Assembly: GCA_000004985.1 (NCBI GenBank)
Contig: GG738907.1
Origin: Naegleria gruberi
Lineage: Eukaryota
Length of the DNA stretch: 64,000 nucleotides
Reading direction: 5' to 3' (one strand)
The notes beneath the pieces are model-generated. The model was not told the origin of the DNA. It saw only the letters and a program-made list of their open reading frames with translations, and did not search any database. Shown here in pieces: positions 12,237 through 37,065 of this stretch. Both the position numbers and the translations under genes were made by a program. Within the stretch, counting starts at the first letter, position 1. Each line of letters opens with the position of its first letter.

Positions 12237-13496
12237 CTACCAATTGTTATTGTTATTACTACTATTACTACTATTATTATTATTACTATTATTATTATTA
12301 GAATTATTAGAATTACTAGTCAATCCAAAAAAAACATCAAAAGTATCAGTACTACTTTGATTTCTTAAAGTAATTAATTTAAAAGAAGTTTGACCTTTAA
12401 AAAATTCACCAAAATCTAATTTTGAAATTGTTTGTTTACCAAATTCATCTAAAATTAAAATATTTCTAATTGTATTTAAACCAATTAATTGATTATTTTC
12501 AAATTCAGTTGAAAAAACAATTGATTTAATAATTAAATTTGATAAAATTTCATTATTAAATTGTAAATTAACATTTAAATTAATTTCACCAATAATTTTA
12601 GGTATAAAAATAACGTTAACTCTCATTGAAGAATGTGCCATAATTAAATTATCCATTTTTAATATTTTACCTGTTTCATATTCTGTAAATGTTAAATCTG
12701 CAATAAAATTTTCATTTTCTTGTAAAATTTCTTTAATTGGATTTGAACTTGATCTATTTCTATTTATATTTGAAATTGAATTTTTAATATTTACATTTGA
12801 ATTTGAAATTAAATTAAAATAAACATTTTCTTCTGAAGTATTATAAATTGTAAATTCTTTAACATATTTACGATTAATTATTGAACTTCCAATTTCAATT
12901 TCATTTTCATCAATTTTAATTTTAGATTCATTTAATTGTATTATAAATGGTAATTTAATTTTATCAAAATTTTGTAATGTTATTAAATCTAATATAATAT
13001 TTCCATTTAAAGAATGTAATAAATTATTTTCATTTTTAGTTGATTTTAAATTAATTTTAAATATATTATTTTTATATTTTTTAATTGTTAATTGTTGTAA
13101 ATTATATAATGTATTAAATAATTGATTAGAAAATTCATCATTTTCAAATGTTTGAAATGAAATTAAAGTTTGTTGACTTGATAATCTAATTACTAAATCA
13201 TTTGATGTATGATTTTCAATTTTTATAATTTTAGATGAATTTTCTCTTGAATTTTTAAATATGATCGGATCATTAATAATTGTTGTATTTAAATTTAAAT
13301 TTAATTTTACAATTATTCTTTCTTCTATTGTTGTGTTATTATTATTATTAACAGATTGAATGACTTCCTTGATGAGAATATATTCTTCAGTGTCGTCATC
13401 TAATTGTTGTTGTTGCTCCGTATTGTCCATTGTCGTCATCACAGTCATAATATTATTATTACTAGTGGACAAGGACGAAGGAGATGTGGAGGACAT
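12237..13496 (-). CDS. giant multi-ASH/PapD-like repeat protein, N-terminal segment carrying the start codon
   Basis: ATG at 13496-13494 in aaaaaaaaATG context. 419 codons with an ASH-like repeat (LDFGEFFKGQTSFKLITLRNQSS). It ends in a poly-Asn tract whose stop overlaps the next ORF in another frame. Confidence 0.6.
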   Translation of the reverse strand: MSSTSPSSLSTSNNNIMTVMTTMDNTEQQQQLDDDTEEYILIKEVIQSVNNNNNTTIEERIIVKLNLNLNTTIINDPIIFKNSRENSSKIIKIENHTSNDLVIRLSSQQTLISFQTFENDEFSNQLFNTLYNLQQLTIKKYKNNIFKINLKSTKNENNLLHSLNGNIILDLITLQNFDKIKLPFIIQLNESKIKIDENEIEIGSSIINRKYVKEFTIYNTSEENVYFNLISNSNVNIKNSISNINRNRSSSNPIKEILQENENFIADLTFTEYETGKILKMDNLIMAHSSMRVNVIFIPKIIGEINLNVNLQFNNEILSNLIIKSIVFSTEFENNQLIGLNTIRNILILDEFGKQTISKLDFGEFFKGQTSFKLITLRNQSSTDTFDVFFGLTSNSNNSNNNNSNNNNSSNSSNNNNNW

Positions 13497-13830
13497 TTTT
13501 TTTTAATTTTAGGCTAGATGATAATATTATCATGTCATTCTGCAGTTTTGAACAAGTAAGGCACTAAACAGCAATCCAAACCTATTCAATTACTTTTCAA
13601 CAACAAAAAGATGCCGTCAGAAGCTAGTTTATACATCAATTGAACATCAGCCGAAAGGTGATGAATATTAAATAGGTTTTCATCATTGGCAAAGCAACAC
13701 TCTTTTATTAATGAGAAGGAGACAATTGTCGAGCATAAAAATGAACATCCAAGTAGAAAATTCAAGTAAAAATATTTCAAAGGCTTGAATTATGGTTTTA
13801 ATAAAAATAAAAGAAAATCCAATTCAGGAT

Positions 13831-14109
13831 TTATTCAACGCTTCTTACAGGTCTCTTATTATAATAGTCTAATAAAGTTTCATCATTTGATAATCTTTCT
13901 TCTAAATATTCTTTGAGTGTTTTAGCCTTTTCAGCTTGTCCACCAAACTTTTTCAAAATAGTGCTATCATCAAAGTTCTTTCTCAATTCACTTAACATAT
14001 CACTTTCATAAACAAATGAAATCTTTTCAGTTGTCTTTTCATCAAGGAACAATTTAGCTACTGCCCAAGCAGTTGAGAATAACCATGGTGCACGCATTAA
14101 TGTTGCCAA
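13831..14109 (-). CDS. Sec14-like (CRAL-TRIO) protein, exon 4 (C-terminal)
   Basis: Encodes LATLMRAPWLFSTAWAVAKLFLDEKTTEKISFV, the typical CRAL-TRIO C-terminal helix, up to the stop. The acceptor is ..attatag after a 42-nt intron. The ORF-track M here is really a TTG Leu codon. Confidence 0.75.
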   Translation of the reverse strand: MATLMRAPWLFSTAWAVAKLFLDEKTTEKISFVYESDMLSELRKNFDDSTILKKFGGQAEKAKTLKEYLEERLSNDETLLDYYNKRPVRSVE

Positions 14110-14151
14110 CTATAATTATTATTAATATTTAAATTTTGTAAATAAATTTAC

Positions 14152-14336
14152 CTTCAATCTTTCAGGGAAATAATTTTGACAAGTTCCAAGAATTGATTTA
14201 TCCAATTTAGTATCTACACATGATAATGACCATCCTTTATAATCAATAACAACAACAAATTTTTCTAACTTTCCACCAGTTTGTAATCTTAATTCATGGA
14301 ATGCAACTTCTAATACAAATCCAACAAGTTCTTCAA
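14152..14336 (-). CDS. Sec14-like (CRAL-TRIO) protein, exon 3
   Basis: Encodes EELVGFVLEVAFHELRLQTGGKLEKFVVVIDYKGWSLSCVDTKLDKSILGTCQNYFPERLK, the CRAL-TRIO lipid-binding core (ID-KG-S, NYPERL motifs). It is bounded by a 47-nt intron upstream and a GTAAAT donor downstream. Confidence 0.7.
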
Positions 14337-14383
14337 CTATTTTATAATATATTCAAATGATAATAGTATAATATAATACATAC

Positions 14384-14449
14384 TCAATTCATATGGCTGT
14401 AAAGTTCCTGGTACAAAGTTTGAAATTGCTAAACATAAACATGGACATC
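14384..14449 (-). CDS. Sec14-like (CRAL-TRIO) protein, exon 2
   Basis: 66-nt exon after the acceptor ..aataatag. It encodes GCPCLCLAISNFVPGTLQPYEL (compare SEC14L DRDGCPVWYDIIG) and is in phase with exon 1. Its donor is GTATGT. Confidence 0.55.
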
Positions 14450-14662
14450 CTATTATTCATAATAACAACAACAAGTATTATTAAAAACCATGATCATAGC
14501 GTCATAATGATCATCATTTTAAAATTCAATGATACCATTCGGAATAGTACAACACCAACACCAATAGTAGTAGTAATATTAGTAATAGTAGAATGATATT
14601 ATATAGTTAATATATTGAATAATAGGAATTATCAACAAACCTTCTTTATCAGAACCCATAAA

Positions 14663-14892
14663 NNNNNNNNNNNNNNNNNNNNNNNNNNNNNNNNNNNNNN
14701 NNNNNNNNNNNNNNNNNNNNNNNNNNNNNNNNNNNNNNNNNNNNNNNNNNNNNNNNNNNNNNNNNNNNNNNNNNNNNNNNNNNNNNNNNNNNNNNNNNNN
14801 NNNNNNNNNNNNNNNNNNNNNNNNNNNNNNNNNNNNNNNNNNNNNNNNNNNNNNNNNNNNNNNNNNNNNNNNNNNNNNNNNNNNNNNNNNNN
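14663..14892. other. assembly gap (N-run) inside intron 1 of the Sec14-like gene
   Basis: 230 N characters. The sequence on the two sides is near-identical (see findings). Confidence 0.95.
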
Positions 14893-14976
14893 GGAATAGT
14901 AGTACAACCAACACCAATATTAGTAGTAGAATGAATGATATTATTATATAGTTAATATATGNAATAATAGGAATTA

Positions 14977-15322
14977 TCAACAAACCTTCTTTATCAGAAC
15001 CCATAAAACATAAAAATTCTTCAAGTTTAGGAAATAATTCAACAAATCTAGTTAATTTTGATTGATCTAAATTCATTCTTTGTCTCCATCTAATTAATTC
15101 AATAATACCACTGATAGTCTTATCAACATTTCCACTGTAGGCTCTCAACCATCTAACATAAAAAACATCATCATTAACTTCAGATCTTTGCATAAAATCA
15201 TTTAATTTTGGTAAAAGATCAGCAATATCTGGATATTTAGAAGAAAGATTAGCAATGGTAAGCTTATTCTTTACTTCAACAATCAATTTTTGTTCTTCCG
15301 ATGTAAAGACGAGAGCATTCAT
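14977..15322 (-). CDS. Sec14-like (CRAL-TRIO) lipid-transfer protein, exon 1
   Basis: ATG at 15322. Encodes the CRAL-TRIO N-terminal helical region (FYVRWLRAYSGNVDKT...IRWRQ) through FMGSDKEG. A GTTTGT donor at 14976 follows a split codon. Confidence 0.7.
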
Positions 15323-15544
15323 TTTTTGATCTTTTTTTGTGTGCTTCTAAAGAGATACAATAAGATTCCGAGTACTGCGATTTAGAAGGCTTCATTAAAC
15401 TGTTGGTGTCGTCATTGGAGGACAAGAAACTTTGTAATGGTAAGGAATAATTCAAAGTAGAATCAGAATTCATAGAACTCTAGAATAATCTTAATTCCTA
15501 TTAGAAAGTGTGTTGATTATTAAGGAGTCTCATTTTTTAATATT

Positions 15545-18382
15545 ATGTATTTCAACCCTCATATTAAATACGCCTATACTAATAGATATTTAAAATTAAA
15601 TAAAAAAATTCAAATGATTTCGGAGCAAACAACATCTCAAACAGAGGAACAATCATTGGGTTCTTCTTCATCATCAATAACAAGTACTACCACTACTACT
15701 GCTACTACTAGAACATATGATGTAGAAATGGAAAGGATGAGAAGAGATTATTTTAATCATGATGAAAGTATTGTACATTTAGATCATGCAGGTAGTACAT
15801 TAACAAGTAGTAAATGTTTAAAGAAAGCCTTTGAACAATTATTTTTCCCTAATAATAATGATAATAATAATGAGGATGAAACGAATGAAACAAATGATAA
15901 TGATGATACATTAATTAATAATAATAATAATAATAATAATACAATGAAGTATGATCATAGTAATATGATGATATTATCAAATCCACATAGTGATGGATCA
16001 TATTCATCTAGACAAACAAATTTAATAATAACAAAAGCAAGAGAATTAATTTTAAATATATTTAATACAAGTTTAAAAGATTATGATTTAGTATTTACAT
16101 TTAATGCATCTCATTCTATGAAAATTATAAGTGATTGTTTTCCATCAAATGAAAATCATTCAATTGTTGGTTATTTAAATAATTCTCATAATTCTTTAAT
16201 TGGAAGTTTAAGATCAATTCCATCAAAACAATGTCTAGTTTGGAATAATTTAAATGATTACCAATTTTATTTAAAAAATAATTATTTAAATGATAATAAT
16301 ATAAATGATAATAATTTAAATGATAATTCAAATAATACAAATAATTTAAGTTATAAACATTTAATTGGAATATCAGGTGAATGTAATAGTACAGGTAGTA
16401 AAATTGAAGATTTTTCAATATTTAATGAAATTTATAAAAATTATCCAAATATATATACAATATTAGATACATCAAAATATTCAAGTACAAATGTATCAAT
16501 TGATTTATCTAAATATAAACCTGATTTTATAGTAGCAAGTTTATATAAATGGTTTGGATATCCAACTGGATTAGGAATTTTATTAATTCGTAAAATTAGA
16601 ATTTCAAAAATTAATTTTCAACCAAGAAATAATTATTTTGCAGGTGGAAATGTTCAAGTTAATACTTCAACTGAACCTTTTTTTATGAAATATAGAAATG
16701 ATTCATTTCATTCTTTTTTAGAATTTGGTACTATTCCTTTTATAACTATATGTGAAATGTTTTATTATTTTAAACAAGTACAATTAATGTATTCTTTAAT
16801 TTTTAATAATAATAATAATAATTTAAATAATAATTTAAATAATAATAATAATATAAATAATAATAATAATAATTTAAATAATAATATAAATAATAATTTA
16901 AATAAAATAGAAAATAATTTATTAAATTTTAGAGAAATATTTAAAATAATAGAAGAACATACAAAAATATTACAAGAATATTGTATAAATGAATTATTAA
17001 AATTAAAACATTATAATAATAAATTATTATGTAAAATTTATAATTTAAAAAATAAATCAAGTATAATTAATTTAAATTTTTATACAAGTAAAGAATTAAT
17101 GATTGGATATTCACAAATACAAGAATTATGTTCATTAAATAAATTTAATATTAGAAGTGGATGTTTTTGTGTACCTGGTTCATGTCAAGAACTTTTTAAT
17201 TTAAAATTCATTGATTTAATTAATAATTTTGAAAATGGTAAAATATGTTGGAATAATTCAATGGATATTATACCTGGTTCTAAAAATATACCAACTGGTA
17301 GTGTTAGAATATCTTTTGGTTATTCTTCTATTAAAAATGATATTGATAAATTTATTCATTTTATTAAATTAAATTTAATTGATAATAATTTTAAAAAAAT
17401 TAATTATAATTTAAAATCTGATAATATTAAATTATCTCATTTTTATATTTATCCTTTTAAAAGTTGTGCTCCTTTTAAAATTTTTAATAATAATAATTTA
17501 AATAATTTAAATGATTTAAATAATAATAATATAATTAAAACATGGGAATTAATTTCTAATAGTGGAGCATATTTAGATAGAGAATGGGCTATTTTAGATG
17601 AAAATGATTCAATTTTAAATTTAAAAAAATGTACAAAACTAGCTAAAATATTTCCAATTATAGATATGAATAATAGAATTGTAATTTTAAAATTAAATGA
17701 TAATGATAATAATAATTATGAAACTATTGAATTTAAAATAGATGAATATCCAATACAATCACTTGAAAATAAAATATGTGGAAGAGAACATGATTCACTT
17801 GTTTATGGAAATGATGTTAATGAAAAACTTTCTAATTTTTTAGGAATTTCAGTTAAAGTTATAAGAAGAAAACCTTTTAATAATAATAATATTAATATTA
17901 ATAATAATTTAAATAATTCAAATAATTCTAAAAATATTGAATTAAATAATTTAAATAATTGTAAAAATCAATCATCATATTCAAATGAAGGTAATAAGGG
18001 ATTATTTTTAGTATTAAATAAATCATCATTAATAGATTTAAATAAAAGATTAGGATTGAATGATATAACAAATATAGAATGGTTAATAGATAGAATGAGA
18101 CCAAATATAGTAATTGAAGGATTAGAAGAATATGAAGAAGATGAAATTAAATCTATTTATATTAATAATATTCCCTTTCAAATTAATTCACAATGTTCAC
18201 GTTGTACAATGATTTGTATAAATCCAAATACTTTAATACAAGAAGAAGAACCTTTAAGAACTTTATATTCTTATAGAAGATTTGGAAATGGTGTTTTATT
18301 TGGTGTTTATGCTAGTCCATTCACCACCACAAATCAATATTCAATTCAATTAAATTTTAATAATACTAATAATAATGAATAA
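15545..18382 (+). CDS. mocos: molybdenum cofactor sulfurase (MOCOS/ABA3/HxB family)
   Basis: Continuous 945-codon ORF. The N-terminus has a NifS-like class-V aminotransferase signature (VHLDHAGSTL, LYKWFGYPTGLGILLIRK). The C-terminus has a MOSC domain with an SQCSRCTMICINPNT cysteine motif. An alternative start, ATG 15614 (MISEQ...), is possible. There are Asn-rich Dictyostelium-type insertions. Confidence 0.85.
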   Translation: MYFNPHIKYAYTNRYLKLNKKIQMISEQTTSQTEEQSLGSSSSSITSTTTTTATTRTYDVEMERMRRDYFNHDESIVHLDHAGSTLTSSKCLKKAFEQLFFPNNNDNNNEDETNETNDNDDTLINNNNNNNNTMKYDHSNMMILSNPHSDGSYSSRQTNLIITKARELILNIFNTSLKDYDLVFTFNASHSMKIISDCFPSNENHSIVGYLNNSHNSLIGSLRSIPSKQCLVWNNLNDYQFYLKNNYLNDNNINDNNLNDNSNNTNNLSYKHLIGISGECNSTGSKIEDFSIFNEIYKNYPNIYTILDTSKYSSTNVSIDLSKYKPDFIVASLYKWFGYPTGLGILLIRKIRISKINFQPRNNYFAGGNVQVNTSTEPFFMKYRNDSFHSFLEFGTIPFITICEMFYYFKQVQLMYSLIFNNNNNNLNNNLNNNNNINNNNNNLNNNINNNLNKIENNLLNFREIFKIIEEHTKILQEYCINELLKLKHYNNKLLCKIYNLKNKSSIINLNFYTSKELMIGYSQIQELCSLNKFNIRSGCFCVPGSCQELFNLKFIDLINNFENGKICWNNSMDIIPGSKNIPTGSVRISFGYSSIKNDIDKFIHFIKLNLIDNNFKKINYNLKSDNIKLSHFYIYPFKSCAPFKIFNNNNLNNLNDLNNNNIIKTWELISNSGAYLDREWAILDENDSILNLKKCTKLAKIFPIIDMNNRIVILKLNDNDNNNYETIEFKIDEYPIQSLENKICGREHDSLVYGNDVNEKLSNFLGISVKVIRRKPFNNNNININNNLNNSNNSKNIELNNLNNCKNQSSYSNEGNKGLFLVLNKSSLIDLNKRLGLNDITNIEWLIDRMRPNIVIEGLEEYEEDEIKSIYINNIPFQINSQCSRCTMICINPNTLIQEEEPLRTLYSYRRFGNGVLFGVYASPFTTTNQYSIQLNFNNTNNNE

Positions 18383-18564: not shown

Positions 18565-19284
18565 ATGGATGTTGATAATTTCATTGATAATAGTCCTCTA
18601 ATGTCAATTGCATCTAGTCCTACATTAAAACTTATATCAGAAAATGATGATAATGAAAGAGAGGAGGAAGAATTTAATAATCTAGACCGCAATGACAATA
18701 CTTATTTAAATGTTGATGAAAATAGTATCATTGAAAGTTGTAATGCAAGTACATGTGGGGATGAATATAAGGAAGAAGAAGAAGAAACCATAGTTGAGGA
18801 AGAAGAAATACAATCGGATGATGATGATGGCGCTGGTTCACCTACTACAAGTACTAAAGGAGATATTCTTAATCAATTATTATCCGCACCAATTTCAAAT
18901 TCTTCTTTTAAGCATATAAGATTAAATCCTCAAGATTTACATTTTAATAGTAGATTATCACCCAATCATTTATATCCTCAATCATCTTCTTCATCATCAA
19001 ATACAACAAGTCCAAATAACAAATTAATTGTACTTGCTAATAATAATAAGCATAATTCTCAATCATCAACACCAATGTCATTTATGAAATCAAGTTCAAT
19101 ATATTCAAAACCAACATCAAATGCAACTTCAAGAGCAAAAAGATCTTCATCACTCTCAACTCCAACTCAATTAAATAATCATCAATTATTAGATAAACAT
19201 TCACCTCCACCTCATCATCCTCATTCTATGAATATGAATAATACAATGAATAATTCAAATAATTCATATAATAATAATAATTAA
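18565..19284 (+). CDS. acidic and Ser/Asn-rich disordered protein, or the 5' part of the next gene
   Basis: ATG-initiated 239-codon ORF. It ends TAA TAA only 8 nt before the next ATG, which is in a different frame. Confidence 0.4.
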   Translation: MDVDNFIDNSPLMSIASSPTLKLISENDDNEREEEEFNNLDRNDNTYLNVDENSIIESCNASTCGDEYKEEEEETIVEEEEIQSDDDDGAGSPTTSTKGDILNQLLSAPISNSSFKHIRLNPQDLHFNSRLSPNHLYPQSSSSSSNTTSPNNKLIVLANNNKHNSQSSTPMSFMKSSSIYSKPTSNATSRAKRSSSLSTPTQLNNHQLLDKHSPPPHHPHSMNMNNTMNNSNNSYNNNN

Positions 19285-19292
19285 TAAATAAC

Positions 19293-21050
19293 ATGAGTAA
19301 TAATGTAAATTCAAATACTTCTGGAACATCAACACCTACTATATTAATATCCAAATCTAAAAAAGTAAATAATACAATGACAACAATGATGACAGAGAAT
19401 ACAATATTTTCATCAAAATATTTTGTTAGAAATTGGGATACAACACCACAACATGTAACAAGAATGAAACAATTATTTGAATTATATGATCATTTTATTA
19501 ATTTACCATATAAAGATTTGGAATTAAAATTAAAAAGTGATTTATTATTAATATATAATAGAATACTTGGATATTTTCAATTAAATTATTTACATATGAA
19601 AGATTTAGCAATACAAATTAAATGTATTGGATTATTTATTCAAGGTTATAAACCATTACTTGAATTTATTGAAATTGGTGGAACTCAAATTTTATTAGAA
19701 GTTCTTGGATTTCATTATTATAAGAATGAAAATGAAGATAAAAAAGAAGCTTTATTACTTTTAACAAATATTGCTAATAATGGTAGAAAATATAAAGAAG
19801 TTATTTGTTTTGATAATGGTTTAGATTTATTAAGAAATTCAATCATTTATATTCCATCTATAGATATTAATTTAATTGCAAAGAATTTTATTGTTTCAAT
19901 TTATCAAGGAAATCCAAAACATTCAAATGATATTTTAGAATTATTATTTGATATATTTAGAAATCATTCATCTCCAAATAATTGGAAAACCATAAGTGCA
20001 CATTTAAGTTCAAATAATACTCCAAGAAGAAATTCAACTATTAATTTATTAGATAATAATTCACAACAGCAACAACAAACTCAACAACAAGAAATGAATG
20101 CATTTTCATCACCACGTTCAATATTTAATTCACCTAGAGTATTTGGTAATTTTTTAATGTCTCCAAGAACACCAAATGTTGCACACATTACTAATACCAC
20201 TACTAATTCAACTACTGCAACTTCTAAAAATGTAATTCAATCACCCTCCTCTTCAATTTCATTTCAACCAGGTTTAACAACACCTAAAAATGAAGCCACT
20301 CCAAAACAACAATCACTTCCATTCACAAAATTTACATTCCTTAATGTTGTTGAAACTGCTAGAAATCAATTAGCATCAGCTGAAGAATTTAGAAAATCAT
20401 TCGATCCTTCAAATACAAATAATAATATGAACAATAGTAATAATACAAATACAAATAATACAAATAATACAAATACAAATGACAATGCAAATTCAATTGA
20501 ATTATCAACACAATCAATATTATTAATATATTCAATGATAAAAGAAATATCCAAATCTATTAAAATTGAACAAATGAGAGAAACAAGAGTATTAGATATA
20601 ATATTTATGAATTTATCAGATGAAGATATTAGAGTAGTAAGAGAAAGTGTTGAAATGGTTAAAATAGCAATGCAATATCCAGATGAAAATGAAATATTTT
20701 CAGAAATGTTAATACATAGATCAATACAAGGATTATCAATGATTGTAATTGTTTTAGGAAAGAGAAGATTTAAAACTATTTTAAAACAATTTTTTAAAAA
20801 TTCAAATTATTTAAATAATTCAAAAGAAGAAATTAATTATTCAAAGAATTTTTTAAATTTAATATTTGGAGCATGTTCAATTATGAATTTAATTTTAGAA
20901 AATGCAATTGAACATGTTAATATTTGTAAAATAATGTTTGAAAGTAATATTATATTAACTTTAATAGAAAGTATTTTAATTATTAAAGAAAAATATGGTG
21001 ATACACATTATTGTGTTGATACATCAAAAGAAATGACACAATTGTTAAGG
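19293..21050 (+). CDS. ARM/HEAT-like helical-repeat protein, exon 1
   Basis: ORF with an alpha-helical repeat-like core (LLEVLGFHYYKNENEDKKEALLLLTNIANNG). It ends at AGG|GTAATT, a canonical donor at 21051. Confidence 0.6.
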
Positions 21051-21129
21051 GTAATTTATTAATTTTTATAATTTTTATATTTAATAATTTTAATTTAATT
21101 TTTATATTTTTAATTAATTTTTAAAAAAG

Positions 21130-21607: not shown

Positions 21608-24600
21608 ATGTCAAAGCTTTTTGGATTAAATTCAACAGCATCAGGTCATTCAAGAGACGAAGAAGAGGATGATCAAAATATTGAAGATTATCAATCATCA
21701 TCATTTAACGTAGATAGAGCAACAACAAGTTATTCAAAACCTATTCAAATTAATAATCAAATGGATAATAATTCATCATCACCTAATTCCTATAATAATA
21801 ATAGTGGTGGTAAACAATTGGGTAATAAACCACCTCCACCACTTCCACCACCTGGTACTTTTACTGATAACATACAAATCAATACCATTAACACCAACAA
21901 CACCAACAACATTAACACCAATCAAAATAATTTATCAAGTTCTCCACAATTTACTTTAGGTAAAAGTTTTGCTAGTCTTCAAAATTCTGAAGCAAGATCA
22001 AGGGCTAGTTTTCAACCATCCATGATGACAAATGTTAAACCAGCAAGAAAAGATACAAATGCTCATAGACTTGTTCATCAAGTATCATCTTCATCATCTG
22101 ATAATAATTTAACAAATAATTTAACAACCAATGATAATGATATAACAAGTAATTTAAAATGGGCTAAAATTGATAGTGGATTATATTTAAATGAAAAGAT
22201 TGAATTAATTTGGAATGATGAAATATTTAATAATAATAATAATAATGAAAATGAATTATTTAATATTTATTTATTTTCATTTACACGTATTATTGGTACT
22301 TATTTTGATCAATTTGGATTACAAAATTTACAATTATTACAACAAGAAGAATCAACTATTAGATTATTAGATAAAATATATGATCAATTATATTCAAGAG
22401 TATATACTATTGTATTTAAAATACCAAATTTAAATATTTTATTACAATATATTAATAATAGAAAAAGTAGAATTTTATATATTTTAAAAACATTTTCAAT
22501 TAATTTAATTTTAAATTCTTTATTATTAGATTTTATTAATTATTATAATGATGGTAATAATTTAAATAATAATATTTTAAATTTATGGTCTTTATTAGAA
22601 CAATCTACTATTATAAATAATAATACAAATAATATTGATACTATTACAAATGATAATACCACTTTAAATCCTCTTTATAATGATATTCAACAACAATCAG
22701 AACAACAATTAGAATCTATTACAAATAATAATATCAATAATAATATCAATAATAATAATAATACTATTAATACAATTAATAATAATGAAAGAAGAAGAAC
22801 ACTTGAATCAGAAGAGAGTGAATCAGATTTAGTATTAGATAAAGAAGATTTTGGAATGGCAGTATTTACAGCAGGTAGAGATGATTTTAGATTATCAACT
22901 GTTTCATCCGATTCATATGATCCAACATCAACTGATTTAACTATTAAATCATCAGTTAATAATAATTATGTATTACCACCACTTCCACCTTCAAACAAAC
23001 CAAAAAGAACCAATGAAATTGACATTACTAATAATACATCATTATCATCATCACCACCACCACCTATTATTCCACAAAACAAACCTCAAAAACCTCAACC
23101 ACCTCAATTCATTCAACCACAACAACAACAACCAATTATTCAACCAATTGTTCAACCATCAACAACTGAATCTGAAAATATACCAAGTGGTATTGGTGGT
23201 AATGGAATGGTTAGACCTCCTAAACCTCAAACTAAACCAAAAATTAATGATAGTACTTCATCCAATAATAATACTACATTATCTTCCAATAATAATAGTA
23301 GTAATAATAATTTATTATCTGTTAATAATACAAGTACAAATACAAGTACAAGTAATACAAGTAGAAATAATAGACATTTAACAGATGATCAAAATAGAAT
23401 GCAAAAAGCCAAATCAGTTTCATTAGATTTTGATAGATTTGGTGGACTTGGTACAACACCACCACATGCAGTTGATAATTTAATTGTAAAGAAAACTAAA
23501 AGAGTTCAAAATAGATCAAAACCAACTGCAACAAGTAAAAATGAAGTTAAAAAAGAATTGGCAAGAGTTGAACAAGATGCTCAAGAAACTTCACTTAATA
23601 ATATTCCAATTATTATTACAAATAATACTACTACAAATAATAATAATACTACTACAAGTAATACAAATAATAATACAAGTACAACAACAGGTAAATCATC
23701 ACCTAGAGATAATAAGAATAGTAGTAAACCAACATCTACTTATATTCCAATTATTACTGGACCAATTCCAATTATGGGAGGTGTACCAATGATGGGAATA
23801 GCAGGTGGTATATTAAAAAAGAAGAATAGTGAAAATCAATTGAAAAAGGATGAAAATATTGATCAATATACTTCAACAAGTAATGTTAGTAGTGGAGTAG
23901 TGGATACAAGTCCACGTACAGGAGGTAATAATACTAGTAAATTTACACCACCTGTTGCACCACCAATTCCAGGTAAGAAACCACCAACCACAACAACATC
24001 CAATTCTAATAGTAGTAGTAGTACTACTAGTTCACCAATTGTTAGTAGTAGGATTGAAAATTCACCACAAGTTAATACTGAACCACCACCACCACAACAA
24101 CCAAAGAGAGCTGTAGCACCACCAATTCCAAGTAATAATAATAATAATAATAACAAACCTCAAACTAAACCACCTCCACCACCAATCAATGAAGAACAAT
24201 CAACTATAGGTAAACAACCACCTCCACCACCACCAGAAGATGAAGAAGAAAATGTTACTACTACTACAAATAATACAAATAATACAAATAATAGACCACC
24301 TATTCCATCAGGATTGAAAAAGACAACAGCTCCTCCACCTCCACCACCAGAAGAAGATGATAATTCACTTCCATCTAAACCATCCAATCCACCACCACCT
24401 ATTAATCCATCTATATTAGAATCAAAACCTAAAAAGACACCACCTCCACCTCCATCATCATCATCTACTGCTGCTACTACTACTGATATGAATGATAGTA
24501 ATAATAGAGGATTGAAAAAGACAACACCACCTCCACCTCCACCACCAGAAGATGATGATGAACAAGATAATCAAACAGCAATAACATCACCATCATCAGT

Positions 24601-25498
24601 GTCAGTAACAAATGATGCTAATAGAAGATTAAGTGTTGCAATTTCACAATCAGTATTATCTGAAATGAGATTAAAGAAAACTCAACAAGATGATACTCAA
24701 TCAAATGATAATACATCATCATCATCAGTTGGAGGAGGAAGTGTTCAACAAGTTGATTTTAGATCTGCATTGAAAAAGAAGGAATCTACAAGTAATTTAA
24801 ATACTTCTGCTACTTCACCAAATACTATTAATACTATTAATACTAATACAAGTAATACAAGTAATAGTGTTAATACTCCTTCAAGTGGTCAAATTGATTT
24901 TAGATCTAATTTAAAAAAGAAAGATCAACCATCTTCTTCTTCTACCACTCAACCATCTTCAATTGATACTACTAAGAGTAATAATAATAATACTATTACT
25001 CCACCACCATCAACAACAACTAGAACTACTACTTCACCTAATACTAATAATAATACAGGAAGTGGTACACAAGTTGATTTTAGATCAAATTTAAAGAAAA
25101 AGACAGAAGATCAATCAAATACTTCACCACCATCTGTTCAAGTTGTACAAGATAAAAAGAATGAAATTCCACCATCAAAACCATCCAATCCACCTCCATC
25201 TACTACTACTGCTACTACTGGTGGTGGAGGAGTTCAACAAGTTGATTTTAGATCTCAACTCAAAAACAAAACATCAAATACTACTACTCCAACTTCTACT
25301 ACTACACCAGTAACAACAACAACACCACCACCTGTTAAATCAACCACAACTACAACACCAGTAACAACAACAACACCACCATCATCTGTATCATCAACAC
25401 CTTCTACTCCAACAAGTGGTGCTGCTGTTACTGCTAATAGTGCTGGTGAAGCTCAACAAGTAGATTTTAGATCAATTTTAAAGAAGAGAAAAGAATAA
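21608..25498 (+). CDS. proline-rich, low-complexity protein with GLKKTT-polyPro motifs and five C-terminal QQVDFRSxLKKK repeats; a putative cytoskeletal/adaptor protein
   Basis: Continuous 1296-codon ATG ORF. It has PPPPLPPPG and polyPro-acidic stretches (GLKKTTPPPPPPPEDDDE three times) and five spaced repeats of (Q)QVDFRS-x-LKKK. The N-terminal 300 aa are non-repetitive. Confidence 0.65.
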   Translation: MSKLFGLNSTASGHSRDEEEDDQNIEDYQSSSFNVDRATTSYSKPIQINNQMDNNSSSPNSYNNNSGGKQLGNKPPPPLPPPGTFTDNIQINTINTNNTNNINTNQNNLSSSPQFTLGKSFASLQNSEARSRASFQPSMMTNVKPARKDTNAHRLVHQVSSSSSDNNLTNNLTTNDNDITSNLKWAKIDSGLYLNEKIELIWNDEIFNNNNNNENELFNIYLFSFTRIIGTYFDQFGLQNLQLLQQEESTIRLLDKIYDQLYSRVYTIVFKIPNLNILLQYINNRKSRILYILKTFSINLILNSLLLDFINYYNDGNNLNNNILNLWSLLEQSTIINNNTNNIDTITNDNTTLNPLYNDIQQQSEQQLESITNNNINNNINNNNNTINTINNNERRRTLESEESESDLVLDKEDFGMAVFTAGRDDFRLSTVSSDSYDPTSTDLTIKSSVNNNYVLPPLPPSNKPKRTNEIDITNNTSLSSSPPPPIIPQNKPQKPQPPQFIQPQQQQPIIQPIVQPSTTESENIPSGIGGNGMVRPPKPQTKPKINDSTSSNNNTTLSSNNNSSNNNLLSVNNTSTNTSTSNTSRNNRHLTDDQNRMQKAKSVSLDFDRFGGLGTTPPHAVDNLIVKKTKRVQNRSKPTATSKNEVKKELARVEQDAQETSLNNIPIIITNNTTTNNNNTTTSNTNNNTSTTTGKSSPRDNKNSSKPTSTYIPIITGPIPIMGGVPMMGIAGGILKKKNSENQLKKDENIDQYTSTSNVSSGVVDTSPRTGGNNTSKFTPPVAPPIPGKKPPTTTTSNSNSSSSTTSSPIVSSRIENSPQVNTEPPPPQQPKRAVAPPIPSNNNNNNNKPQTKPPPPPINEEQSTIGKQPPPPPPEDEEENVTTTTNNTNNTNNRPPIPSGLKKTTAPPPPPPEEDDNSLPSKPSNPPPPINPSILESKPKKTPPPPPSSSSTAATTTDMNDSNNRGLKKTTPPPPPPPEDDDEQDNQTAITSPSSVSVTNDANRRLSVAISQSVLSEMRLKKTQQDDTQSNDNTSSSSVGGGSVQQVDFRSALKKKESTSNLNTSATSPNTINTINTNTSNTSNSVNTPSSGQIDFRSNLKKKDQPSSSSTTQPSSIDTTKSNNNNTITPPPSTTTRTTTSPNTNNNTGSGTQVDFRSNLKKKTEDQSNTSPPSVQVVQDKKNEIPPSKPSNPPPSTTTATTGGGGVQQVDFRSQLKNKTSNTTTPTSTTTPVTTTTPPPVKSTTTTTPVTTTTPPSSVSSTPSTPTSGAAVTANSAGEAQQVDFRSILKKRKE

Positions 25499-25756: not shown

Positions 25757-25991
25757 NNNNNNNNNNNNNNNNNNNNNNNNNNNNNNNNNNNNNNNNNNNN
25801 NNNNNNNNNNNNNNNNNNNNNNNNNNNNNNNNNNNNNNNNNNNNNNNNNNNNNNNNNNNNNNNNNNNNNNNNNNNNNNNNNNNNNNNNNNNNNNNNNNNN
25901 NNNNNNNNNNNNNNNNNNNNNNNNNNNNNNNNNNNNNNNNNNNNNNNNNNNNNNNNNNNNNNNNNNNNNNNNNNNNNNNNNNNNNNNNNNN
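25757..25991. other. assembly gap (N-run)
   Basis: 235 N characters. No flank duplication is evident. Confidence 0.95.
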
Positions 25992-27235
25992 TGATTAAAA
26001 TGTTATGTGCATAACTGTGTTCTGGAGATTCAATTTGTTTTAGTTTACAATAAATACCAAAGCTGTCAGGTTGAAAAATCCGCCAACAGTCTTTCTTAGA
26101 CTAAATGAAAAGCATTATGAGAAATATTGATAACTATTAATTGAAAAGATGGATTTGGTTCCACAACATACCATTATTTTTGCAACTCTTAATCTTTGGA
26201 TTATGTTGTATTACTGTCTCATACTCTATTGGGAAGTAATCGCAATTAATTATTGCGCGTTGTGAGTTATCTCTTCTTTGGAGAGTTTATTTCTTCAGTT
26301 TGTTAGGTGAGATATTTCACAACTTGATAAACTTGCGGACGTATAAATTTGAAATTAGTATGCCATACTTAAGTGGGCTCTTTATCAATTTTCTTGCAAG
26401 TAAACTCAATTTGCATTTACGATAATATGAAATCTTTGTGCAAAGTATGATGGCTGTATCGAGTGAGATCTCAGCCAAGACCTAAAACAGAAACTCCACC
26501 AACTTGAAGAAAAGCCATAGAACCCAACAACATACCACCAAGCACAGAAGAATATTACTCATTTAATAATGCAGATGTGGTGTATCAGGTAACAAAAGAA
26601 GAAGAAATGCTACTAAGCATATTGGCATGACAAGTATTGGCTTTGTTTTGTTGCCCGGGCAACTAGGAGTAGTTCGTACGTTTTTAATTTGCTATTTATA
26701 ATAAATATTTTCACACATACATGCTTTATTACAATAATGGGAAAGTATGAGTGAGTGTAGAGTTCAAAAACCATTTATCAAACTAATTAGGGAAGATTCG
26801 TCTGTATCTCAGCAGAAGTTCTGATATTGATTGAGGATTTGATTTTGGTTTGGTAAAAGTACAATTCTTAAAGAGAGTTGTGAATCCAAATAATGGACCA
26901 AGTATTTGTCGTGTTATTTCTTGTTTTGTTTCAATTATGGAGTTTCTGTATGTAGGAACCATTGAATGCAATACTTAATTATAGAATCAAAAAACAAGTC
27001 TATTTGTACAGTACAATAAGAATCATATCCATAAATGAATCTTCTTATCATTGAAAATTAACCATTTTCCAATCCATTTCTCCAACAAAACAAAATTTGC
27101 GCTTCCAGGCTATTGTCTTGTTCAAAAATCAATTTCTCTTAAATTATTACACCTCACTCTTCTTCACGTCATAATTAATTCTAAAACCATGAATAAAGAG
27201 GTTCATTGATCTTAATAATAATAAATTTATTTTTT

Positions 27236-27678
27236 TTAATGATTCCTCTTCCATTGAGCAACTTGATGTTTAATTTGTTCAAAAACTTTTCTAACATCAT
27301 CAGTTGAAGTGGCACAACATTCGTGTATCCAAATTCTTTGTTCATCAAATTTGTTTAAAGATAAAAATTTGTTTCTAATAAATTGAACACTTTCATCATA
27401 ATCTTGTGAACCATTGTAATCTTTAAAACATTGTTCAATACCATGAACTTCAAGTTTCTTTTTAAATATATCAGTCTTATTTAAAACAATAATAATTGGT
27501 GTTTCTTTAAAAAATCCATTACATAAACCTTCAAATACAGTTAATGAATCATCCATTCTATTCAATGAATCATCTTCATACATTTTTAAATCATAATCTG
27601 CTAATGATGATACATATACAACTGCACTAACTCCTTCAAAACAATTTACCCATTTCTTACGTTCACTTCTTTGACCAC
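27236..27678 (-). CDS. heterotrimeric G-protein alpha subunit, exon 2 (switch II to C-terminus)
   Basis: Encodes (G)GQRSERKKWVNCFEGVSAVVYVSSLADYD...VLNKTDIF...CATSTDDVRKVF, the canonical G-alpha G3/G4/G5 boxes. The acceptor is ..tttatag at 27679-27680 after a 100-nt AT-rich intron whose donor is G|GTATGT at 27778. Confidence 0.85.
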
Positions 27679-27778
27679 CTATAAAATTAAAATAAAAATT
27701 AAATAATAATAAAATAATTAAATTAAAATAATAAAATATTAAAATATTAAAATATTAAAATATTTAAAAAAAACATAC

Positions 27779-28429
27779 CAACATCAAATAAACTAAATTT
27801 TAAAGATTCATGATCGAATGAAACTTCAACAATACCAATAGTTTTTTGACGACAATATAATAAATCTTCCTCAGATGGAATGTAATCATTTTTTCTAATT
27901 ATATCTAAACGTTCAAAGAAATATTCAGCACCATCAAAAACATGAACATCATTTCTATTATTTTGAAATACTTTTTGAATAGTTGAATCTTTCCATAATT
28001 GATAAATATCATTAGCAATTTCATCAGTATAAAAATTACGATCACCTCCTTTAACACTTGTTGTTGATGTCATGAATGCTCTATTCTTACTTAATTGTAA
28101 TACACGTTCTGCACATTTACTTAATTCTTCACTTGAGAATTCCAAGTTTAATTCTTTTAATTTTTGACACATTACTGCCATACTTGAAACTACATTGAAA
28201 TGAACTGTATTTTTAACACGACGACGTTCATTCTCTAAAAATGGTCTTGTGATATAATACGAACTTGTTTGAAAAATGTTGATTTACCTGATTCACCTGA
28301 TCCTAATAATAATAATTTTACATCATAATTTCCTGAATTTGGATCAGCATTTTCATTCATTTCATCACCTTCATTATTATTATTTGGATCATTATCATTG
28401 ATACGTTGATTATTCTTACTTTTTACCAT
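27779..28429 (-). CDS. heterotrimeric G-protein alpha subunit, exon 1 (N-terminus, P-loop, helical domain, switch I); contains an apparent 1-nt frameshift near 28236-28240
   Basis: ATG at 28429. P-loop [14 protein letters not shown]; helical domain; [37 protein letters not shown] (RxxTxGI switch I, DVGG). The two ORF-track pieces (28235..28429 and 27747..28181) overlap in different frames, with a T5 homopolymer at the junction. Confidence 0.8.
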
Positions 28430-29596
28430 CTTGATTGGAAGATTGATTATTTGATGATGATGATATGTGAACCATCAGTTTTACCAAAACATAAACCCAT
28501 TATTATTATTTGTTTGTTATTTGTTTGTTATGTGTTTGTTATTGTTATTGTGTTATATTACTTTTTAATAGTACTAATTGTAGTAGTAGTAGTATATTAG
28601 AATAGTGAAATGTAAATAATAGATAATATTATTATTATTCTTGTTGTATACAGAAGATGACACTATTAAAAAAATATTTTTTGACAAGAGATAATTGGAA
28701 AATAGTAAATTTGTTATTGTTGTATCAAAACAAATCACGTTGTTGTAGATAAGGAGGTGGGTACTGCGAGTTTTTGTAGTTTAGTTCACTCTCACAGCAG
28801 GGAGTCGTTCAAAATTTTTTTTTGATGGGAAAGTGATTAATGACAGTTGGAAAATCCACAACAGGCTTGAAAATAGTCTTGTTTGTTTGCGATGGCTAGT
28901 TAATGGAAGAACAACTTCACAAGACACTGAAATTTAGTTTCCCGCTCAAAATTACAAAACATACCAAGGAAAAGACAACGAATCAATTTTATTCAAGAAG
29001 GATTCACCAAAATATATTTACCCACCACATCAAAGACTACTGCAAAGAGGCTATTAGACTTGTTATCCAATCAATAAAAGAATTCTAATTGTGTTGAATA
29101 CATTTGAATATCTCAATCAGATTCCATTTATCAAATGCATTGAATATTATACATTGACATATTCCCAAATGTTTGAAACAAGTAGTGATATCTAATTTAT
29201 TATTTTATAATGATATATCAGTAAATCATCTTTTGATGGTCCATAACATATTCGGTTGAGATATTTCATATTCTTTCCAATTTAGAATAAAAATTAATAG
29301 ATTCAATTTATTTATATGAATTTTAAAAAGTTAGAAAGTTCATTTGACATTAATATGAAAATTCATTAATATATTTTCAATTATTAATTAAATAATATTT
29401 TCCACCAAAATAATTTCAAAAATGAAATAATACACTATTATTAATGTAGTTTTCCTTCTCTTTCCACAATTTCCGAATATGTGATGTGAATGCAACTAGT
29501 GTATTAATGGAATGACATTTTTTTTGAACTAATTACCTTTTCAAAAAAAACAAACAGAATTTAAAAAGCATTTGAATTAAAAAATTTAATAAAAAT

Positions 29597-30739: not shown

Positions 30740-32743
30740 TTATTCAATATAGTCATCAATAAAATCAGAGGCAACATATTCAATTGGTTGTTTTGATGAT
30801 GATTGAGGCATTGATAAAGTATTAGGACTAGTAATATTATTATTATTAGATGATGTACTTGTTGTTAAAGGTTGTAATGAATTAAATGAATCATTCATAA
30901 TAGAATTATTAGTAGGAGTAGTAGAGAATGGAGTGGATGGAGTACTATTTGAATTATTTGATGATAATTGTTGTTTCAATTTTGATATTTCATTTCTCAT
31001 ATCTTCCTTTTCAAATTGTAATTTAATAATCATTGTTCTTAATTCATCTACATTTGAAGGTAAATCAAAATAATTTGAATAATTTCTATTAAATGATTTA
31101 AATTCATCATCATCATCATTATATTGATTTTGAAACATTTCCTCTTCTTCTTCATTATAAAAACCATCTCGATGTGATATTTTATCATAATACAAATCTG
31201 GATCATTATATTCATCTGGATATGGATATATTTTAGGTATAATATCTTGTGGTGTATTTTCACCATGTAATAATCTATCGATACTATATTTGTTAGGTAA
31301 TTTTTTAATTGGTTCCATCATGTACCATTTTCTATTGGGTCTAATTCTATATAGAGTATTAAATACTTCAACTTCTTCATCATTATCATTACTTTCTAAT
31401 ATAGCAGCATTTGTAGTATTATTATTATTATTAGAAGTATTAGTAGAAGTAGTAGTAGCAGAAGTAAATGTCTTTCTTCTTAATTCTTTATAGGCTTGTT
31501 GAATGTATGGATTACATGTATCTTTTAATTGTTTGAGTGGAAGTGATGAATCTCTATTAGATGATCCATCTAATATACCTAAATTAAGTGCAGCAGCACT
31601 ATTAAACATTCTTCTAGTTGGTAGTATGGTTTGTTTTCTTGAATATTCAGGTTCAACATTTTCATTAGATAATGAAATGGTATTTCTTGTATTTTGTTGA
31701 CTACTATTACTACTACTACCACTACTATTACTACTATTATTATTATTACTATTATTAATAGATTGACTTGTTAATGGACCAATATTACCAGTAATATCAT
31801 ATAATTGAGCAGTATTTGATAAATTATTACCAATAGAACCAACAGTAGTAACACTATTTAATAGAGATGGTGAATTGAAATCTAAATGATGATCTAATTG
31901 TTGATCGAGTAAATTTCTTGGATCATCCATAAATAATTCTCTAAAAGCATCAATATCATGATTTAACATTTTACAAATGGTATCATCAATTTGTATAATT
32001 TTTTGTACTTGTTCTTCATATTCAATTAGAGATTCAGATTCTTTCTGATAAATTTGTTCTAATTTTTCTGATTGTTTTGAATATTCATCTTTATAATTTT
32101 TATAATATTGTAATTTAACTTCTAATTCTAATTCACATGTAATTAAACGATCAGATATTTCTTTTAATTTTTCAGAATTAACATGTTTTTGTAATAAATT
32201 TTTAGATAATATCATATCATTAGATTTAATTAATTTAACATGTTCAATTCTCTTATTTTCAATTTTTAATTTTGATTTACCAAATAATTTTTCATTTTTT
32301 AATTCTAATTGTTCAATATTTAATGTTGTTTCTGCTTCCATTTCATCTCTTTGTAATTGTGAATTAAAACTAAATGTTAATTTAACTTGTTGTGTTTTAA
32401 TAAATGTATTCATTATAAATGTATATTTACCAATACTATTAGATGTAATTGAACTTAATTTTAATAATTGATTAGAAGGTGAACTTGATTCAACATTTGA
32501 ATCATTTTTATCTTTAATTTGACTAAATGCTAAATATATAGCAAATGATTCTCTAGCAATTCTATTACGTTCTTCTTCTTCTATAGAAGAATTAGATGAA
32601 TCTAATTGAGAGGATGATGAATCATTTAATGATGATGATGATGAATTATTATTATTACCAAATATATTACTACTACTACTATTATTGGATGAATTATTTG
32701 AATTATTTGAATTAGATAGATGAATTATTAATAGATGGTACAA
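30740..32743 (-). CDS. RhoGEF (Dbl-homology) protein, C-terminal segment (coiled-coil and low complexity)
   Basis: 667-codon ORF. The ORF-track start is a TTG. It overlaps the end of the DH-domain ORF by 32 nt in another frame. It contains a coiled-coil region and Ser/Asn tracts. Confidence 0.7.
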   Translation of the reverse strand: MYHLLIIHLSNSNNSNNSSNNSSSSNIFGNNNNSSSSSLNDSSSSQLDSSNSSIEEEERNRIARESFAIYLAFSQIKDKNDSNVESSSPSNQLLKLSSITSNSIGKYTFIMNTFIKTQQVKLTFSFNSQLQRDEMEAETTLNIEQLELKNEKLFGKSKLKIENKRIEHVKLIKSNDMILSKNLLQKHVNSEKLKEISDRLITCELELEVKLQYYKNYKDEYSKQSEKLEQIYQKESESLIEYEEQVQKIIQIDDTICKMLNHDIDAFRELFMDDPRNLLDQQLDHHLDFNSPSLLNSVTTVGSIGNNLSNTAQLYDITGNIGPLTSQSINNSNNNNSSNSSGSSSNSSQQNTRNTISLSNENVEPEYSRKQTILPTRRMFNSAAALNLGILDGSSNRDSSLPLKQLKDTCNPYIQQAYKELRRKTFTSATTTSTNTSNNNNNTTNAAILESNDNDEEVEVFNTLYRIRPNRKWYMMEPIKKLPNKYSIDRLLHGENTPQDIIPKIYPYPDEYNDPDLYYDKISHRDGFYNEEEEEMFQNQYNDDDDEFKSFNRNYSNYFDLPSNVDELRTMIIKLQFEKEDMRNEISKLKQQLSSNNSNSTPSTPFSTTPTNNSIMNDSFNSLQPLTTSTSSNNNNITSPNTLSMPQSSSKQPIEYVASDFIDDYIE

Positions 32744-34603: not shown

Positions 34604-35250
34604 TTGTCAGTTGTTTTTTTATTAAATGTCAAAATGATATCAATGGTCATGTCTTCCTTCTCTCGATTTCATGGTCGCTTCGAATGACTTGAAAATTGAT
34701 CGAACGTCACTCTTTCATTTTAGAAAGTTTATTACTATTTTATATGGTCATTGATTTGGTCAACTATATTCTTAATTATCCCAATTAGAATCATGATTGT
34801 ACACTTTATAATTGAATATTTATCATTTAATATTATAATTAATTGAATATAATATTGAGAAAACATTTAATATTTATATATTTCAAAATTAAATTCAAAG
34901 TCATTTCAATTAAAGAAATTTGAGAATCTAATAAATACGATATCTCTCTCCATACATACAATTCGAGATACATTCCATTTATATATTTCAAAAGATCAAC
35001 AATAACAACACATAAAACAATAACAATACAACTAATTATAACTGAAAATAAGAAATTTAAACTACTACTATTATCACTTGAATACCAATTTAAAAAATCA
35101 AAGAAAAATACACTCAGTAATGAATTAATTACTACAACAACAATATCATCATCATCATTAAATAATTCATCATCATCAACTACTACTTTATCATCTAATA
35201 AATCACAATCAATTAATATAAATAATAGTGATAATAATAATGATAATAAT

Positions 35251-37065
35251 ATGATGATAATGGATTGGATAAATAAGAATGAAAATATTAATGATATTTA
35301 TTCACCCATTTCATCTCCTCTTTCTCCTCCTAAAATATTATTTTTATTAAATAATCAAAATAATCAAAATAATCAATTTAATAATAAATCATCTACATCA
35401 ACTTGTATTAATTTATTTAATAATATAAATAATAGTGATAATAATAATAATAATAATAATTCAAATAATAATAATATAATTGAATATTATAAAAAAATAA
35501 TTGATAAAATTGATCAATTTGATTTTGGAATATTAAATACTATATTATCATATTATTTATTAATAATTGATGATTGGTTTATTTGTAATTATTTATTTAA
35601 TAATAATAATAATTATATTAATTTATTTTATGGAAAGAAATTTAATTTTATTTTTCAATTATTTCCTTCTATTTATATTAATATTGAAAATAAATATTTT
35701 ATTAATTATTTAATTGATTTAAAACCAATTATAAATAATTGTGAATTTATTATTTTTAATAATTTAGATCAATTAAATAATTTTAATTTTAAAAAATTAA
35801 AAAGTTTTTCATATTTAAATAATTATAATATTAATAATTTAAATATTCAACATGTATTTGGTAATTCATTAAATACTTTACAAAATTTAACATTTACTTG
35901 TAATTTTAATAATATTAAAAAATTAAAATTAAATTGTAAAATGTTAGAAGATTTAGATTTTAATTCAATTAAAAATATAGAAATATTAACAATACATTTA
36001 AAATATCCAGTTATAGAAGAAAATAATTTAAATTTAATAAATTATTTAAAAAATCAAAAATGTAAAGAATTAAATTTAAATTTTAACATGACAAAATATT
36101 TAAAATATTTTAATGAATTTAATTTAATTCAAACATTATCAATACCATATTGTTTATTTAATGAAAAATTTAATTGGAAAATATTTAAATATTTAAATAA
36201 TTTAACTGTAAATTTTAATGAAAAAATTCAATTTGAAAATTTAATTTCTCAAATTGGAAATCAATTAAAAAAATTATATTTAATTTTAGATATAGATGAA
36301 TTTACAAATGATTCATTTATTAATTTTAATAAATTTTGTATTAATTTAGAAGAATTACAATTAAGTGAAATTAATTTGCATATTTCAAATGAAATTAAAA
36401 ATTCAAATTCAATTACTATATTTGGATGTGATACAATTATAGCAGATTTAATAATTTTAACAAATATTTTATCAATTAAAAATATTTATAGATTAGATTT
36501 AAAAATTAATTCAATTTATTCATTTTTAGAATTAAATTTAAATAATTTATATTTAGAAATTCAATATTTTTATAATTTAAATTCTAATTATCAATTAAAA
36601 AAATATAATAATATAAATAAAATACAAAAATTAGAATTAATTTATAAATATAATGAAAATATTAATGATTTAACATTTTTAACATTTACAAATATAGAAG
36701 AATTAATAATTAAATATGGAATATTAAATACATCTTTATTTAGTCAATTATTATCATGTAATAATATTAAAAAAATAACATTTTATAAAACTGATTTAAA
36801 TAATATTATTTTTAATAAGTTAATTAAATTTAAATTTATTAATTTTATTCAATGTAATTTAAATTTAAATTTTTTAAAAACATTTAAAGAATATTATGAT
36901 AATATTAAATTAAATAATGATATAATATTAGATGGATATTCATTATATTTAACAAATACATTAAATATAAATATTAAACAAAATAATTTAATTGATTTAT
37001 TTAATGAAATTAATTATAAACATGAATATTTAAATAATAATAATAATAATTGTATATTACAATAA
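35251..37065 (+). CDS. Asn/Ile/Leu/Lys-rich leucine-rich-repeat-like protein (hypothetical)
   Basis: Continuous 604-codon ORF with LxxLxLxxN-type periodicity (LNLNFNMTKYLKYFNEFNLIQTLSIPYC..., LEELQLSEINLHISNEIKNSNSITIFGC). It has no other domain signature. Confidence 0.5.
   Translation: MMIMDWINKNENINDIYSPISSPLSPPKILFLLNNQNNQNNQFNNKSSTSTCINLFNNINNSDNNNNNNNSNNNNIIEYYKKIIDKIDQFDFGILNTILSYYLLIIDDWFICNYLFNNNNNYINLFYGKKFNFIFQLFPSIYINIENKYFINYLIDLKPIINNCEFIIFNNLDQLNNFNFKKLKSFSYLNNYNINNLNIQHVFGNSLNTLQNLTFTCNFNNIKKLKLNCKMLEDLDFNSIKNIEILTIHLKYPVIEENNLNLINYLKNQKCKELNLNFNMTKYLKYFNEFNLIQTLSIPYCLFNEKFNWKIFKYLNNLTVNFNEKIQFENLISQIGNQLKKLYLILDIDEFTNDSFINFNKFCINLEELQLSEINLHISNEIKNSNSITIFGCDTIIADLIILTNILSIKNIYRLDLKINSIYSFLELNLNNLYLEIQYFYNLNSNYQLKKYNNINKIQKLELIYKYNENINDLTFLTFTNIEELIIKYGILNTSLFSQLLSCNNIKKITFYKTDLNNIIFNKLIKFKFINFIQCNLNLNFLKTFKEYYDNIKLNNDIILDGYSLYLTNTLNINIKQNNLIDLFNEINYKHEYLNNNNNNCILQ

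Follow-up and report, generated by a model that had tools for sequence, protein, structure and literature searches.

The G-alpha locus of Naegleria gruberi NEG-M, which by sequence is the orthologue of a conserved Naegleria G-protein alpha subunit, is interrupted in the assembly by three single-base indels: insertions of a T at 28465 and of a G at 28419, and the loss of an A at 28247/8. All three belong to the initial 270 nt of coding sequence, lie inside 219 nt (28465-28247) and split the ORF into four frames. We infer that they are probably errors of the draft Sanger consensus and not mutations. The gene is already annotated and its family is well known, and the evidence in hand implies no new biology; the main value of the finding lies in curation, since the GenBank model XP_002671225 is wrong at the N-terminus and in the alpha-1 helix and a corrected sequence of 387 aa can be given. 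Coordinates refer to the window, i.e. the whole stretch of 64,000 nt that was analysed. The gene and its motifs were located as follows:

27236-28500, minus strand: whole G-alpha gene, giving a 387-aa translation after three single-base edits
28500-27779, minus strand: exon 1
27679-27778, minus strand: intron of 100 nt, GTATGT...TTTTATAG, 3% GC, phase 1, splitting DVG/GQ
27678-27236, minus strand: exon 2, reading GQRSERKKW...KRNH, with TAA at 27238-27236
28498-28500, minus strand: true start codon, MGLCFGK..., an MGxC N-terminus that is absent from the GenBank model
28277-28303, minus strand: P-loop GSGESGKST (G1 motif)
27851-27831, minus strand: switch I RQKTIGI (R-x-x-T)
Across the 100-nt intron, minus strand: DVG/GQRSERKKW, containing the DVGGQR motif
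27481-27470, minus strand: NKTD (NKxD motif)
27319-27305, minus strand: CCATS (G5), a variant of TCAT

The repaired protein matched Pfam PF00503 with E = 1.3e-110 over profile positions 5-331 of 333, comprising the Ras-like and the helical domain, and it aligned with G-alpha-i1 structures over residues 48-382. The two pieces which lie in separate frames around 28235-28283 were found to be halves of one G-alpha domain (PF00503, E = 1e-110 once repaired), in line with the preliminary description, which had recognised a G-alpha gene. Profile match, nucleotide-binding and catalytic motifs and the MG(x)C N-terminus were all present. An MGxC N-terminus is typical of G-alpha lipidation sites; MGLCFGK also opens a second N. 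gruberi copy (XP_002668415.1) and the Willaertia homologue, and N. lovaniensis opens with MGACFGK. The orthologues have a gap at the position which matches the DVG/GQ intron. The best match of the repaired protein was N. gruberi XP_002671225.1, followed by orthologues with 74% (N. lovaniensis) and 60% (Willaertia) identity and by the N. fowleri cluster. An affinity to Dictyostelium was considered and rejected, the best matches being from Naegleria; the Dictyostelium proteins gpaA-gpaL are the wrong comparison because the gene belongs to N. gruberi.

On the minus strand, frame 0 runs from the ATG at 28500 to a TAA at 28449-28447, the second piece lies in frame 1 and ends at a TAA at 28418-28416, the third piece, which carries the P-loop, lies in frame 2 and ends at a TAG at 28237-28235, and the fourth piece, again in frame 1, opens at 28283 and carries the helical domain through ...SLFDVG; frame 2 resumes after the intron. 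A continuous ORF after splicing is not present in the assembly and is obtained only with the three single-base edits. The following sites were assigned:

28459-28470, minus strand: frame break 1, tcacaTatcatc, extra T at plus-strand position 28465 beside an (ATC)4 repeat; premature TAA at 28449-28447
28415-28427, minus strand: frame break 2, ggtaaaaaGtaag, extra G at plus-strand position 28419; premature TAA at 28418-28416
28243-28252, minus strand: frame break 3, tcacaagacc, corresponding to cacAAAgacc minus one A; TT at plus-strand positions 28247-28248, compared to TTT in the orthologues
28235-28241, minus strand: T5 run (plus-strand A5 at 28237-28241) that overlaps the premature TAG at 28237-28235; not an indel site, the intact reading being P-F-L (cca ttt tta)

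Removal of T 28465 restored GSQSSSS and removal of G 28419 restored DGKNKNNQR, both exact matches to XP_002668415.1. Since these two breaks lie at 28465 and 28419, the true MGLCFGK start is cut off; the predicted lipidation motif MG(x)C is present at 28500, but in the assembly two frame breaks part it from the rest of the protein. The preliminary description had taken its "exon 1" as the start of the gene and had counted one break, correctly ascribed to a single-base indel and not to an intron; the gene holds three, two of them further upstream. An N-terminal intron (MGLCF G/gtaaaac...gaag/GT) was considered in this region and rejected, since the low-complexity N-terminus is long and in frame in the intact copy as well as in every orthologue.

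The third indel was placed by aligning the DNA of the window to that of N. lovaniensis and of two N. fowleri-type contigs. Only one gap appeared: attatatcac-aagaccattttta in the window stands against attatatcacaaagaccattc in the others. Addition of an A at 28247/8 gave the peptide found in XP_002668415.1 and the orthologues: SQRPF or TQRPF is read in the intact N. gruberi copy and throughout the orthologues, the Willaertia segment having diverged (TQETPF). The stop of the P-loop frame at the TAG and the continuation of the protein in a second frame, which runs from 28283 through to the DVG/GQ intron, had been described before and were both reproduced here. The two open frames do overlap, over 49 nt and not 48 nt, and the A5/T5 run that had been put at 28236-28240 is located one base further on. 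The lesion had been explained by a T5 run that should be read as T6; according to the alignment with orthologous DNA the missing base is an A approximately 10 nt upstream, in a run of three, and the peptide SQDHFLENE that followed from the former repair has two wrong residues. An indel in a long homopolymer was not found: none of the 17 A/T runs of at least 5 nt within the gene is changed, indel 3 shortens A3 to A2, and the extra T and the extra G lie outside any run, the extra G 28419 directly following one.

Every GT..AG pair that restores the frame at break 3 was enumerated. Where the P-loop is spared, the pair either measures 26 or 32 nt or removes at least 20 conserved residues; the 26-nt (28260-28235) and 32-nt pairs both delete conserved residues as well and fall short of every real intron observed in the window, where introns have 47-100 nt and GTNNGT donors; a pair of normal length that spares the conserved residues was not found. 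The 53-nt pair GTAAAT..TTTTTAG (28287-28235) would delete GKST, as had been noted, but it is not the sole candidate that it had been taken for, given the 26- and 32-nt pairs. That the cell bypasses the break, through a very short intron, RNA editing or programmed ribosomal frameshifting, has next to no probability. Frame-restoring pairs of 26 and 32 nt do exist, the shorter one is used by GenBank, and there is a T-rich stretch at the stop codon; however, the intron lengths and donors speak against these pairs, the conserved RIISQRPF-E-ERRR is read without interruption in the second N. gruberi copy and in the orthologues, and the shifts (+1, +1 and -1) differ in direction, so that no single recoding mechanism explains them. 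At break 3 in particular, a single frame is kept by N. lovaniensis, by the N. fowleri-type contigs and by the second N. gruberi copy, which is not the picture of a programmed frameshift. Splicing, programmed frameshifting and RNA editing are not credible explanations.

The locus is represented in GenBank by XP_002671225.1 / EFC38481.1, "guanine nucleotide-binding protein G(i) alpha-1 subunit", a model of the same locus on a scaffold of 275,174 bp which matches in all three of its pieces. The model covers 28429-27236 only and has 355 aa compared to 387 aa of the repaired protein. It differs by an internal MVKSK start (28429), with loss of the MGLCFGK N-terminus, and by a short pseudo-intron:

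28235-28260, minus strand: 26-nt GT..AG pseudo-intron of XP_002671225.1, joining KQV to QNERRR with deletion of the conserved RIISQRPFLE

If the consensus is in error, internal start and pseudo-intron are an annotation work-around.

The second copy, XP_002668415.1 / EFC35671.1 (NAEGRDRAFT_76672), is encoded on a scaffold of 8,329 bp and reads in a single frame through all three break sites. After the three edits, the window translation was identical to residues 1-239 of this protein except for NNNNEG versus NNEGG, a clean change in the length of an (AAT)/(GGT) repeat by 3 and 6 nt; there were 0 amino-acid substitutions in 239 residues in this protein-level comparison. The model of the second copy lacks exon 2 and runs past the true 5' splice site into a spurious exon, and its last 30 residues match 20356-20267 of the window (minus strand), antisense to a DUF5578-like gene and inside the plus-strand ORF 19293-21062. 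Because the tail is joined precisely at the true GT donor and its match in the window is preceded by an AG, it is best taken as a mis-predicted terminal exon. A haplotype with a 7.4-kb deletion, which would have made both alleles defective, had been considered from this tail and was dropped on the same grounds. Exact look-ups of XP_002671225, XP_002668415, the truncated 64-aa ORF and the eIF6 protein yielded no independent N. gruberi DNA, a protein search with the G-alpha N-terminus returned XP_002668415.1 alone, and a metagenome scan gave only relatives with at most 44% identity. No relevant report on frameshifts or assembly errors in N. gruberi turned up in the literature that was searched.

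Two scaffolds with a nearly identical exon 1 could also mean that the copy in the window arose by recent duplication and is a decaying paralogue (pseudogene), and that the 8.3-kb scaffold is the functional locus elsewhere. This is very unlikely, since the window copy occupies the ancestral syntenic slot, between eIF6 and the proline-rich and DUF5578 genes as in N. lovaniensis, a species that has RhoGEF, eIF6, G-alpha, the proline-rich gene and the DUF5578 gene in the same order. Furthermore, the spurious last exon of XP_002668415.1 maps to the same neighbour gene (20356-20267) in the same orientation, and the 8.3-kb scaffold is therefore co-linear with the locus, i.e. allelic and not a dispersed duplicate.

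The comparison with N. lovaniensis also revealed a difference beside the gene. Between G-alpha and the proline-rich gene, N. lovaniensis encodes three genes (12815-15857 of its own sequence) for a 341-aa protein, a metallophosphoesterase and a flavokinase; they are missing from the same slot of the window (25757-27235), which contains approximately 1.2 kb of non-coding-looking DNA with 33% GC plus a gap of 235 N. The region 21608-25498 (plus strand) is an uninterrupted ORF of 1,296 aa, very rich in proline and threonine, with PPPPP runs and a repeated QVDFRS-LKKK; it had no Pfam match and only a weak similarity to a 1,477-aa neighbour in N. lovaniensis. The region 35001-37000 has a GC content of 10-13% and yet is overlapped by an ORF of 604 aa (35251-37065) rich in N, I and L. 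The GC content of the whole window is 26.6%, compared to 35% reported for the genome.

The preliminary description had named an assembly error and a disabling mutation as possible causes, and these are indeed the alternatives to be weighed. In favour of a consensus error, the indels are clustered in 219 nt, the remaining 930 nt of coding sequence have no lesion, and P-loop, RxxT, DVGGQR and NKTD are kept. Substitutions, further stops or a loss of motifs beyond the first lesion, as expected of a decaying pseudogene, were not observed; with 0 substitutions in 239 residues, 930 nt open and the motifs present, the gene does not look like one.

A second argument for consensus error comes from at least 5 similar frame breaks in other genes of the 64-kb window. 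The RhoGEF gene, two genes upstream of G-alpha on the minus strand, changes frame at approximately 32712-32743 inside ...NDMLLIVPS..., where N. lovaniensis is continuous. It is divided into the ORFs 33779-32712, which holds the DH domain, and 32743-30740, and its GenBank model (533 aa), which begins within the second ORF, has no DH domain. A gene for a protein of approximately 3,500 aa (13502-3113, minus strand) consists of four overlapping ORFs with splits at approximately 12237-12319, 8789-8832 and 6238-6256; all four encode Ig-like domains of the CFAP65/CFAP74/Cep192 type and the splits are at low-complexity tri-nucleotide repeats. A candidate break was found on the plus strand at 19281-19293, where an ORF of 239 aa and the DUF5578 ORF of 589 aa lie in different frames, 8 nt apart; the two may be one frame-broken gene, as suggested by the N. 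lovaniensis orthologue with 1,149 aa. An intron scan with the local donor type, in which the real G-alpha intron was recovered as positive control, did not repair the junctions of the RhoGEF gene, the ~3,500-aa gene or 19281-19293. Most of the frame-break sites in these other genes adjoin tri-nucleotide repeats.

Some observations speak against a consensus error. For a Sanger consensus to contain three errors in approximately 220 nt, the patch would have to be locally thin or of poor quality, and assembly gaps come no closer than 2.2 kb and 5.5 kb; a uniformly high error rate is contradicted by uninterrupted ORFs of 3.5-3.9 kb in the same window. Moreover, the clean 3- and 6-nt repeat differences indicate that the two copies are truly distinct haplotypes, and the 1-nt differences could then be real too. 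A less likely reading is that one NEG-M haplotype truly carries the three frameshifts as a genuine null allele, the functional protein coming from the haplotype of the 8.3-kb scaffold. The presence in one assembly of two distinct exon 1 versions, whose (AAT)n and (GGT)n lengths identify them as haplotypes and not as one sequence read twice, would fit such an allele, as would the position of the indels away from long homopolymers, which gives them no look of a platform-specific artefact, the rarity of three Sanger consensus errors within approximately 220 nt and the intact long ORFs nearby. The loss of one allele or gene should also be tolerable, given the 13 G-alpha genes of N. fowleri (PMC9283941). 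On the other hand, three frameshifts in 219 nt together with 0 substitutions in 239 residues and 930 lesion-free nt would be an odd spectrum of decay, and if the at least 5 similar breaks in the window were all real, the haplotype would be null for many genes including the conserved RhoGEF. NEG-M is possibly polyploid according to older literature, but that the G-alpha break and all other breaks of the window are real, in a long-cultured, axenic and possibly polyploid strain with a many-null haplotype, is improbable. Were it true, a many-null haplotype affecting G-alpha, the adjacent RhoGEF and the giant Ig-domain gene would show one moment in the allele-specific decay of genes of a clonal amoeba; real lesions would in any case document heterozygous null alleles in the reference strain.

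Consensus error is the reading we prefer. The N. gruberi assembly is a Sanger draft of 40.9 Mb with 35% GC (PMC9928731, Table 1) and the organism is described as heterozygous (PMC9928731). The reads of the two haplotypes would have been partly assembled apart, with the 8.3-kb scaffold keeping the intact exon 1, and the region, being assembled twice, would have had a thinner coverage per copy. Errors could then have arisen in a heterozygous, low-complexity stretch of the main scaffold, and the real gene would encode a normal G-alpha of 387 aa, predicted to be lipid-modifiable at its N-terminus. The RhoGEF model would lack its catalytic domain for the same reason, and consensus indels of the 2010 draft may be concealed in other N. 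gruberi models that begin internally or have very short "introns". Such hidden indels would affect comparative counts of signalling genes.

Compared to its closest relatives, the window gene resembles the orthologues N. lovaniensis C9374_001730 and N. fowleri FDP41_003899, which are 74-76% identical and share the RhoGEF and eIF6 neighbours, the gap at DVG/GQ and the conserved segment at break 3. Unlike the window gene, both have uninterrupted frames, and their N-terminal low-complexity region is different in sequence. Compared to mammalian G-alpha-i1 (PDB 9epp_A, 1agr_A), the architecture of Ras-like and helical domain is alike (residues 48-382, E = 1e-73) and the G1-G4 motifs as well as the catalytic Arg and Gln are common to both; the assignment to the Gi subfamily is an annotation label only. 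The Naegleria protein differs from G-alpha-i1 in its long N/S-rich N-terminal extension, its short and divergent C-terminus and its G5 motif, which is CCATS instead of TCATD.
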